Assembly (NCBI RefSeq): GCF_056712565.1
Contig: NZ_CM160072.1
Direction: 5' to 3' (one strand)
Length of the DNA: 64,000 bases
Shown here: positions 9,375 through 13,177 of the stretch, one piece after another
Layout of the letters: each line of letters opens with the position of its first letter
Numbering within the stretch: the stretch's first letter is position 1
The notes under the pieces: generated by a model
Databases searched by the model: none
Told to the model about the DNA's origin: nothing
Seen by the model: the letters and a program-made list of their open reading frames with translations, nothing else
Made by a program: the position numbers and the translations under genes

Positions 9375-10814
9375 ATGTCAGTACCCGTTCAACATCCTAT
9401 GTATATCGATGGACAGTTTGTTACCTGGCGTGGAGACGCATGGATTGATGTGGTAAACCCTGCTACAGAGGTTGTCATTTCCCGCATTCCCGATGGTCAG
9501 GCCGAGGATGCCCGTAAGGCAATCGATGCAGCAGAACGTGCACAACCAGAATGGGAAGCGTTGCCTGCTATTGAACGCGCCAGTTGGTTGCGCAAAATCT
9601 CCGCCGGGATCCGGGAACGTGCCAGTGAAATCAGTGCGCTGATTGTCGAAGAAGGGGGCAAGATCCAGCAGTTGGCTGAAGTCGAAGTGGCTTTTACTGC
9701 GGACTATATCGATTATATGGCGGAGTGGGCACGGCGTTACGAGGGCGAGATTATTCAAAGCGATCGTCCAGGAGAAAATATCCTTCTGTTTAAACGTGCG
9801 CTTGGCGTGACTACCGGCATTCTGCCGTGGAACTTTCCGTTCTTCCTCATTGCCCGCAAAATGGCTCCCGCTCTTTTGACCGGTAATACCATCGTCATTA
9901 AACCCAGTGAATTTACGCCAAACAATGCGATTGCATTCGCCAAAATCGTTGATGAAATAGGCCTTCCGCGCGGCGTGTTTAACCTTGTACTCGGGCGTGG
10001 TGAAACCGTTGGGCAAGAACTGGCGGGTAACCCAAAGGTCGCAATGGTCAGTATGACAGGCAGCGTCTCTGCAGGTGAAAAGATTATGGCGACTGCGGCG
10101 AAAAACATCACCAAAGTGTGCCTGGAATTGGGGGGTAAAGCACCGGCTATCGTAATGGACGATGCCGATCTTGAACTGGCAGTCAAAGCCATCGTTGATT
10201 CACGCGTCATTAATAGTGGGCAAGTGTGTAACTGTGCAGAACGTGTTTATGTACAGAAAAGCATTTATGATCAGTTCGTCAATCGGCTGGGGGAAGCGAT
10301 GCAGGCGGTTCAATTTGGTAACCCCGCTGAACGCAACGACATTGCGATGGGACCGTTGATTAACGCCGCGGCGCTGGAAAGGGTTGAGCAAAAAGTGGCG
10401 CGCGCAGTAGAAGAAGGGGCGAGAGTGGCGTTGGGTGGCAAAGCGGTAGAGGGGAAAGGATATTATTATCCGCCGACATTGCTGCTGGATGTTCGCCAGG
10501 AAATGTCGATTATGCATGAGGAAACCTTTGGCCCGGTTCTGCCGGTGGTCGCATTTGACACGCTGGAAGAGGCTATCTCAATGGCTAATGACAGTGATTA
10601 CGGCCTGACCTCATCAATCTATACCCAAAATCTGAACGTCGCGATGAAAGCCATTAAAGGGCTGAAGTTTGGTGAAACTTACATCAACCGTGAAAACTTC
10701 GAAGCTATGCAAGGCTTCCACGCTGGATGGCGTAAATCCGGTATTGGCGGCGCAGATGGTAAACATGGCTTGCATGAATATCTGCAGACCCAGGTGGTTT
10801 ATTTACAGTCGTAA
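9375..10814 (+). CDS. aldA: lactaldehyde dehydrogenase (NAD-dependent aldehyde dehydrogenase)
   Basis: 479 aa ORF starting MSVPVQHPMYIDGQFV; aldehyde dehydrogenase family motifs (catalytic Cys region GQVCNCAERV, ELGGKAP); matches E. coli AldA. Confidence 0.9.
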   Translation: MSVPVQHPMYIDGQFVTWRGDAWIDVVNPATEVVISRIPDGQAEDARKAIDAAERAQPEWEALPAIERASWLRKISAGIRERASEISALIVEEGGKIQQLAEVEVAFTADYIDYMAEWARRYEGEIIQSDRPGENILLFKRALGVTTGILPWNFPFFLIARKMAPALLTGNTIVIKPSEFTPNNAIAFAKIVDEIGLPRGVFNLVLGRGETVGQELAGNPKVAMVSMTGSVSAGEKIMATAAKNITKVCLELGGKAPAIVMDDADLELAVKAIVDSRVINSGQVCNCAERVYVQKSIYDQFVNRLGEAMQAVQFGNPAERNDIAMGPLINAAALERVEQKVARAVEEGARVALGGKAVEGKGYYYPPTLLLDVRQEMSIMHEETFGPVLPVVAFDTLEEAISMANDSDYGLTSSIYTQNLNVAMKAIKGLKFGETYINRENFEAMQGFHAGWRKSGIGGADGKHGLHEYLQTQVVYLQS

Positions 10815-10824
10815 TGAGTGAAAG

Positions 10825-10848
10825 AGGCGGAGGTTTTTTCCTCCGCCT
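10825..10848. terminator. bidirectional hairpin terminator between convergent aldA and gapC
   Basis: Perfect 9-bp stem aggcggagg / cctccgcct with tttttt loop, lying between the aldA stop (10814) and the gapC stop (10856). Confidence 0.6.
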
Positions 10849-10855
10849 GTGCGCG

Positions 10856-11857
10856 TCAGAGTTTAGCGAATTTTTCGAGGGTGCGAATAAGCTGCGTGAC
10901 GAAGCCATATTCGTTATCGTACCAGGCGACCGTTTTCACCAGTTGTAAATCGCCCACGGCGGTAATTTCCGTTTGCGTGGCATCAAACACCGAACCGAAA
11001 TGGCTGCCAATGATATCGGAAGAGACTATTTCTTCATCAGTATAACCAAATGACTCGTTATTGTTTGTCGCCTTTTTAAGCGCGTTGTTCACCTCTTCGG
11101 CAGTCACTTTCTTTCCGAGAATCGACACCAGTTCAGTGACCGAACCTGTTTTCACCGGCACGCGTTGCGCATGACCTTTCAGTTTGCCGCTCAGTTCCGG
11201 GATCACCAGACCAATGGCTTTTGCCGCCCCCGTAGTGTGGGGAATGATATTTTCTGCCGCTGCGCGTGAAGCACGTAAATCTTTACCACGTGGGCCATCC
11301 ACCAGTGACTGGGTGCCGGTATAGGCATGAATGGTTGTCATCGTGCCGACTTCTATCCCGAAACTGTCATGCAAGGCTTTGGCCATCGGCGCAAGGCAGT
11401 TAGTGGTGCATGACGCCACGGAAACAATGGTGTCGTTGCCATCCAGAGTGTCGTCATTGACGTTATAAACGATGGTTTTCATTTCACCGGCAGGGGCGGA
11501 AATCAACACCTTCTTCGCGCCAGCATCAAGATGCGCCTGCGATTTCTCGGCGGAGGTATAAAAGCCTGTACATTCGACAATGATTTCTGCGCCTTTCGCT
11601 TTCCACGGAATATTTTTAGCCTCTTTTTCGGCGTAAACCGCGATACTTTTCCCATTAACGATAAGTGAATCTTCCGTATAATCAACGCTCCAGGGGAACG
11701 GTCCGTAGTTTGAATCATGTTTCAGCAGGTAGGCGAGAATTTTTGGGGAAGTGAGATCATTAATAGCGACAACGTCTATGTTGCTTTTGACTTCAAGTAA
11801 TCGACGCAACACCAGTCGACCGATACGACCAAAACCATTAATACCAACTTTACTCAT
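10856..11857 (-). CDS. gapC: glyceraldehyde-3-phosphate dehydrogenase C (intact reading frame)
   Basis: 333 aa uninterrupted ORF, N-terminus [19 protein letters not shown] (NAD-binding GxGxxG), catalytic SCTTNCLAP motif. Confidence 0.85.
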
Positions 11858-12045
11858 GGTCTTCTCCTGTCAGGAACGTTCGGATGAAAATTGATCCTTT
11901 CCAGGCTTAGACCAGGATGGCGGGATGGGCAATCTACATTCTTGCAGCGAAACGTAACGTACTGAAAACAGGTGAACAATATTTAATGAAATTTTAAGAA
12001 AAGCCCGTTATGTTAACGGCAAATTATGTTAAAGCAGGAAATGTT

Positions 12046-12576
12046 ATGGGAAATAAATACTCAAGGTTACAAATCAGCATTCACTGGCTGGTCTTTTTGC
12101 TGGTTATCGTAGCGTATTGCGCAATGGAGTTTCGTGGTTTCTTCCCACGTAGCGATCGGCCCCTCATCAACATGATTCATGTTTCCTGTGGCATCTCAAT
12201 TCTCGTACTGATGGTGGTTCGTCTTTTGTTAAGGCTGAAATGCCCAACCCCGCCGATTATACCTAAGCCAAAACCGATGATGACGGGACTGGCGCATTTG
12301 GGCCATTTGGTGATTTATCTCCTGTTTATTGCGCTGCCAGTGATTGGTTTGGTGATGATGTATAACCGGGGCAACCCGTGGTTTGCGTTTGGTTTGACGA
12401 TGCCTTACGCTTCAGAGGCCAATTTCGAACGGGTTGATAGCTTAAAGTCGTGGCATGAAACGCTGGCGAATCTGGGATATTTTGTCATCGGGTTGCACGC
12501 TGCGGCTGCACTGGCACACCACTATTTCTGGAAGGACAACACACTTCTACGCATGATGCCGCGTAAACGTTCCTGA
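12046..12576 (+). CDS. cybB: cytochrome b561
   Basis: Track ORF 12010..12576; start re-set to the internal Met (MGNKYSRLQISIHWLVFLLV) giving 176 aa as in E. coli CybB; multiple TM helices with conserved His. Confidence 0.85.
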   Translation: MGNKYSRLQISIHWLVFLLVIVAYCAMEFRGFFPRSDRPLINMIHVSCGISILVLMVVRLLLRLKCPTPPIIPKPKPMMTGLAHLGHLVIYLLFIALPVIGLVMMYNRGNPWFAFGLTMPYASEANFERVDSLKSWHETLANLGYFVIGLHAAAALAHHYFWKDNTLLRMMPRKRS

Positions 12577-12585
12577 AGGATATTT

Positions 12586-12650
12586 AAAGAAAACGCCTGT
12601 ACTAAAACCGACCCGTGGTACAGGCGAAGAATACGGGCCTACATCGGAAG
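12586..12650 (-). ncRNA. rydC: RydC small regulatory RNA (Hfq-dependent)
   Basis: Minus-strand sequence cttccgatgtaggcccgtattcttcgcctgtaccacgggtcggttttagtacaggcgttttcttt matches my recollection of RydC, including a terminator hairpin (gcctgtac...gtacaggc) plus U-run; cybB-ydcA intergenic position as in K-12. Confidence 0.6.

Positions 12651-13151: not shown

Positions 13152-13177
<26 letters not shown>

Follow-up and report, generated by a model that had tools for sequence, protein, structure and literature searches.

The gapC gene found in the window (the whole 64,000-nucleotide stretch of DNA that was analysed) is very probably an ordinary functional allele encoding an NAD+-dependent phosphorylating glyceraldehyde-3-phosphate dehydrogenase (GAPDH) at the usual aldA-gapC-cybB locus, where it would provide a low-level, sigma-S-dependent isozyme supplementing GapA. 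The original prediction, made from the letters alone, had described an intact 333-codon gapC with preserved NAD-binding and catalytic cysteine motifs, and both parts of this description are borne out. A mechanical scan for open reading frames returned a minus-strand frame of 333 amino acids, from ATG to TGA, that is free of internal stops and frameshifts and occupies exactly the interval listed in Table 1, and it contains the GFGRIG motif, Cys150 and His177. Though correct, the finding is an ordinary one: intact gapC has already been annotated by RefSeq, crystallised, assayed and used to replace gapA. Nor does it set the window strain apart, as most E. coli genomes have the intact form and it is K-12 that represents the exception.

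Table 1. Features of the gapC locus in the window, with positions counted from the first letter of the stretch
Feature	Position	Strand	Description	Evidence or source
gapC coding sequence	10856..11857	-	333 codons + TGA; intact type I NAD-dependent GAPDH	ORF scan, TIGR01534, Pfam
GFGRIG, codons 8-13	11819..11836	-	GxGxxG dinucleotide-binding motif, Rossmann fold	same in E. coli GapA
Catalytic Cys150	11408..11410	-	codon 150 TGC, inside SCTTNC	C150 essential in EcGAPDH1 (PMC8615399)
Catalytic His177	11327..11329	-	codon 177 CAT	H177 essential in EcGAPDH1 (PMC8615399)
Codon 39	11741..11743	-	AAA (Lys) in the window, TAA (stop) in K-12	alignment
G747	11111	-	third base of codon 249 AAG; present in the window, deleted in K-12	alignment
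Shine-Dalgarno sequence	11863..11868	-	AGGAGA, 5 nt 5' of the gapC ATG	read from sequence
Hairpin	10825..10848	.	aggcggagg-tttttt-cctccgcct, 9-bp GC-rich stem, between the convergent aldA and gapC stops	folding
Divergent gapC-cybB intergenic region	11858..12045	.	188 bp; presumed gapC promoter site	K-12 comparison
aldA	9375..10814	+	aldehyde dehydrogenase A, convergent neighbour	ORF scan, annotation
cybB	12046..12576	+	cytochrome b561 / superoxide oxidase, divergent neighbour	ORF scan, annotation

The assignment of the product to the type I GAPDHs rests on profile matches over essentially the whole protein. Against TIGR01534 (type I GAPDH, EC 1.2.1.12) the window protein scores 448.1 bits, with a curated cut-off of 367.2, and its residues 3-325 align to profile positions 1-330 of 330; the Pfam domains PF00044 (Gp_dh_N) and PF02800 (Gp_dh_C) match amino acids 3-102 and 155-313, respectively, the latter over the entire profile (positions 1-158 of 158). 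Cys150 within the S-C-T-T-N-C motif and His177, about 27 residues further on, are the arrangement that characterizes type I GAPDHs, and alignment together with motif location indicates that no catalytic residue has been lost. The gene is identified as the gapC orthologue by its place between aldA and cybB and by its high full-length nucleotide identity to b4493, the order aldA-gapC-cybB being common to the window, K-12, ATCC 11775 and all fetched strains. In the record of ATCC 11775, RefSeq lists the gene as an intact gap encoding "type I glyceraldehyde-3-phosphate dehydrogenase" (WP_000048694.1). The housekeeping GAPDH of E. coli, GapA (b1779), shares with the window GapC the reaction, the fold, the SCTTNC motif, the catalytic histidine and the GxGxxG motif, but the two proteins are only 46% identical, and the GapA-type model NF011954 / PRK15425 gives the window protein 303.1 bits, under the cut-off of 662.

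The annotation of K-12 MG1655 lists gapC (b4493), which lies between aldA and cybB, as a 1001-bp pseudogene, and PGAP labels the identical sequence of a K-12 derivative "frameshifted; internal stop". Base-by-base alignment of the window gene with b4493 shows 24 substitutions and one indel in 1002 nt, K-12 derivatives being 97.5% identical to the window gene at the nucleotide level. The first lesion in K-12 turns AAA into TAA at codon 39 (K39*), and the second is the loss of G747, which changes GGAAAGAAAGTG to GGAAAAAAGTG at codon 249 and causes a -1 frameshift with a TGA in frame two codons on. The earlier description of K-12 gapC as a frameshifted pseudogene formerly named gapC_1/gapC_2 was therefore right with respect to b4493 and the G747 deletion, and the old names do appear in PMC4447067; it was incomplete in that the nonsense mutation is present as well. 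The K-12 and window alleles have in common the orthologous aldA-gapC-cybB locus, an identical putative terminator hairpin and a 95% identical upstream region, whereas neither K39*, nor the G747 deletion, nor the R18G substitution of K-12 is found in the window allele. When K-12 GapC is read through its lesions, just five substitutions besides the stop separate it from the window protein, which suggests a recent inactivation.

The frequency of the intact and null alleles was assessed in 5,426 complete E. coli genomes, with the intact share bounded by lesion-specific short queries and by a systematic sample of 60 hits. A gapC match was present in 5,417 of these genomes (in 5,409 it covered at least 80% of the gene) and absent in nine. 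The 61-mer centred on the K-12 TAA has an exact match in 1,152 of the 5,426 genomes (21%) and the 60-mer spanning the K-12 deletion in 1,041 (19%), so that approximately 80% of the genomes are without the K-12 lesions. The 60 hits sampled down the ranking comprise 47 alleles of 1002 bp, 12 with an indel and one truncated, and all ten 1002-bp alleles that were fetched (AQ15, O145, F8111, the UTI isolate EC1515, O157, 14EC020, EC6868, the dog isolate CUVET19-1704, E. coli B and the window) translate without interruption. Intact gapC is thus the majority state, found in roughly four of every five E. coli genomes, and presumably the ancestral one; the K-12 pseudogene would be a lineage-specific double lesion common to about a fifth of the genomes. 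That environmental isolates have an intact gapC has been reported since 1998, according to the account of Espinosa-Urgel & Kolter 1998 given in PMC2949598. As a minor point, five of 5,429 gapC matches lie on plasmid-labelled records, and some genomes carry the gene in two places.

The null allele of K-12 is not confined to laboratory strains. The double lesion was found in the bovine strain CFS3246 and the human colon isolate MS 196-1, both labelled "frameshifted; internal stop" and first interrupted at codon 39; among the matches listed, those that agree exactly with the K-12 lesion queries also include isolates of pig, chicken, duck, dog, wastewater and ICU origin. PMC2949598, in summarizing Espinosa-Urgel & Kolter 1998, has laboratory strains "accumulate mutations" in the gene; since this particular allele also occurs in non-laboratory isolates, it must be older than domestication and the mark of a natural lineage, which may be phylogroup A/ST10-like, and the combination of K39* and the G747 deletion is therefore a natural lineage polymorphism and not a product of laboratory domestication. 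Further losses are independent of it. The gapC of WB61, a roadside hawk isolate (L016, 301-1301), has a frameshift of its own that puts the first stop at codon 168 and is the most divergent full-length allele in the sample (93.5% identity), SCPM-O-B-7615 has an IS1-associated truncation, and 2017.13.01CC has an additional deletion. Given these independent losses and the nine genomes with no match, gapC is repeatedly dispensable, yet it is under purifying selection where it is kept.

Copies of IS1A adjoin gapC in several unrelated strains (L017, 1-215; L011, 1455-1600; L018, 1748-2445). In E. coli B C2566 and 2017.13.01CC the element lies on the side of cybB, approximately 150-170 bp 5' of gapC, and in SCPM-O-B-7615 it sits between a truncated aldA and the truncated gapC. 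The locus may be a target hot spot for IS1, and the insertion in E. coli B could affect the gapC promoter.

The sequence closest to the window protein among characterized enzymes is that of "EcGAPDH1" (PDB 7C5F and series), which matches it with E = 3.9e-217 and has been crystallised (Zhang et al. 2020, 2021). The two proteins are identical at 329 of 333 residues and differ only by Y60F, N68D, K262Q and N265T. The same four changes, and no others, distinguish the E. coli B allele WP_000048667.1, which means that the protein in the crystals is GapC of the E. coli B type in sequence; the strain of origin of 7C5F is deduced from this match. It is the window protein that departs from the other alleles at three of these positions, as Y60 and N265 occur in no other sampled allele and K262 is likewise unique, the others having Q or, in EC6868, N. 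GapC of E. coli B / BL21 shares with the window the gene, the locus, C150, H177, GFGRIG and the 208-215 loop; the difference lies upstream, where E. coli B has an IS1 element about 170 bp from gapC that is absent from the corresponding place in the window.

The biochemistry of this near-identical protein is well documented. EcGAPDH1 is an active NAD-dependent phosphorylating GAPDH with a Km of 0.73 mM for glyceraldehyde-3-phosphate and a high turnover, and mutation of C150 or H177 abolishes its activity (PMC8615399). An engineered strain in which BL21 gapC takes the place of gapA is viable, the activity of the BL21 enzyme being reported as approximately 40% of that of GapA (PMC8879981, PMC9214030, PMC11611044), and GapC of BL21 is listed among expressed proteins (PMC11471845). 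Complementation of gapA, which had been proposed as a check of the prediction, has thus effectively been demonstrated for the near-identical BL21 allele. For K-12, the Keio gapC deletion has been used in PMC3080795, a paper that makes no mention of an intact gene. A gapC knockout described in Klebsiella pneumoniae (PMC8243499) was set aside, its orthology to E. coli gapC not being established. The catalytic competence of the window GapC is taken by analogy from the E. coli B protein, which has a different residue at 4 of the 333 positions. On the standard mechanism (PMC8615399), the thiolate of Cys150 would attack glyceraldehyde-3-phosphate to form a hemithioacetal, a hydride would be transferred to NAD+ with His177 acting as the base, and phosphate would then cleave the thioacyl intermediate to release 1,3-bisphosphoglycerate. 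The suggestion that this strain could express a second GAPDH is supported as far as coding capacity is concerned: with an intact reading frame, all catalytic motifs, a low dN/dS and an active protein only four residues apart, the allele can encode one.

Selection was estimated for 11 alleles: ten intact ones, that of the window included, and that of K-12 with its lesions read through. The mean dN/dS across them is approximately 0.035 (0.033 to 0.083 for pairs that include the window), and 74 of the 85 segregating sites fall at third codon positions, a pattern that marks a gene in use, as opposed to one in decay. The effective number of codons (Nc) is 52.4 for window gapC vs 27.9 for gapA, that is, weak bias as against extreme bias, which fits low or conditional expression of gapC.

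Several lines of evidence from K-12 point to sigma-S control. ChIP-seq has placed a peak of sigma-S RNA polymerase between gapC_1 and cybB (PMC4447067), and gapC transcripts go up in slow-growing PTS- cells and down upon rpoS inactivation (PMC2759082). In the account of Espinosa-Urgel & Kolter 1998 contained in PMC2949598, environmental isolates are described as having an intact gapC, and fresh water as the setting in which the gene is preferentially expressed. All of the regulatory evidence concerns K-12, where the product is truncated; since the gapC-cybB intergenic region of the window is identical to that of K-12 at 179 of 188 positions (95%), K-12-like regulation by sigma-S is probable for the window gene too. 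GapC would then be a low-level, conditionally expressed, sigma-S-dependent isozyme that comes into play when growth is slow, when carbon is limiting or when the cell lives outside the host, as a supplement to the housekeeping enzyme GapA with its high expression.

A consensus scan for sigma-70 promoters upstream of gapC returned two sites vs 1.7 expected by chance. The only minus-strand site, at 12052-12023 (9/12 matches), lies approximately 165 nt 5' of the ATG and was not retained as the gapC promoter. At the other end of the gene, the hairpin between the aldA and gapC stops folds at -18.5 kcal/mol (z = -4.07), with none of 200 shuffles as good, and the aldA-gapC intergenic sequence that contains it is identical in K-12. 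It is likely a terminator, followed in the gapC direction by UCUUUC; a consensus terminator scan did not list it because the stem lacks a subsequent T-run.

Three other explanations of the intact reading frame have to be considered. The possibility that a sequencing or assembly artefact masks a frameshift is negligible, and nothing was found in its favour: the 1002-bp gene recurs with 100% identity in two independent assemblies of complete genomes, those of E. coli DSM 30083 = ATCC 11775 (the type strain) and of strain N54, and 1,032 complete genomes have at least 99% nucleotide identity to it, which excludes the hidden frameshift that could have undone the prediction. Moreover, a 6-kb stretch around gapC is identical to the ATCC 11775 record, the length of 1002 bp is common to lineages from B2 to O157, and the site of the K-12 deletion, which reads GGAAAGAAAGTG in the window, has no long homopolymer. 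It is also conceivable, and improbable to a lesser degree, that the gene is cryptic, that is, intact but silent, and has simply not acquired a lesion yet in this lineage. Repeated independent inactivation (K39* with the G747 deletion in about 20% of genomes, the WB61 frameshift, the IS1-associated truncation and the nine genomes without a match), the weak codon bias and the lack of a clear sigma-70 promoter in the upstream scan would all agree with such a state. However, a dN/dS near 0.035 and the concentration of variable sites at third positions across diverse lineages are unlike neutral drift, in K-12 sigma-S polymerase binds the promoter region and gapC transcripts are made, and the window gene retains the 95% conserved upstream region together with a good Shine-Dalgarno sequence.

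A main role other than the glycolytic one, whether Epd-like, paired with ArsJ in arsenate handling, or moonlighting and secreted, appears very unlikely. This idea draws on sub-threshold matches of the window protein to the models for Epd and the ArsJ-associated GAPDH and on the fact that E. coli does have a GAPDH paralogue with a shifted substrate, such as Epd (see also PMC8243499). Epd / GapB (erythrose-4-phosphate dehydrogenase) indeed shares the superfamily and the domain layout with the window GapC, but the scores against the Epd models NF010058 and TIGR01532 (281 vs a cut-off of 539 and 278.7 vs 530.55 bits, respectively) lie so far under the cut-offs that the window protein is not an Epd. 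The match to the ArsJ-associated GAPDH model NF033735 (305.9 bits) is likewise under its cut-off of 450, and arsJ is not adjacent to the window gene, whose neighbours are aldA and cybB. Finally, the enzyme four residues apart turns over glyceraldehyde-3-phosphate efficiently and substitutes for GapA in vivo. The reading of the window gene as an ordinary, functional glycolytic gapC is strongly preferred over all three.

Beyond correct annotation, the intactness of gapC in this strain matters little and brings nothing new in kind. The consequences concern K-12: metabolic models and essentiality predictions that are based on this strain, with gapA as the sole GAPDH gene, may not transfer to the approximately 80% of E. 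coli strains, the type strain included, in which gapC is intact. The physiological role of GapC is loosely defined, its link with sigma-S, slow growth and aquatic life resting on promoter and transcript data from K-12, and the natural null-allele polymorphism offers a ready comparison for approaching it. The null polymorphism in about a fifth of genomes, the strong purifying selection on intact alleles and the independent losses can be brought together in a broader proposal, which we put forward tentatively and rate at somewhat below an even chance: GapC would be a GAPDH under sigma-S control that serves cells growing slowly or living outside the host, bringing a real fitness benefit in most lineages and being conditionally dispensable in one widespread lineage. 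If this were true, gapA could be non-essential in strains such as the window strain under inducing conditions.

A few observations concern the divergent side of the locus. The mechanical open reading frame of cybB starts at an ATG at 12010 (12010-12576, plus strand, 188 amino acids), while RefSeq and K-12 place the start at 12046 (176 amino acids); the additional 36 nt of the longer frame overlap the presumed divergent promoter region. Just 3' of cybB, at window positions 12587-12650 on the minus strand, lies the small RNA RydC, a full-length Rfam match of 90.5 bits (gathering score 48) in the same position as rydC in K-12. Farther on, the junction at 13169-13177 marks the absence of approximately 1.64 kb relative to K-12 (K-12 locus L003, 6028-7666), a stretch that comprises the 5' part of hokB, mokB, sokB and approximately the first 1.2 kb of trg, the gene for the ribose/galactose chemoreceptor. 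Truncated remnants of hok and trg remain at the junction, and both are called partial pseudogenes by PGAP in ATCC 11775.
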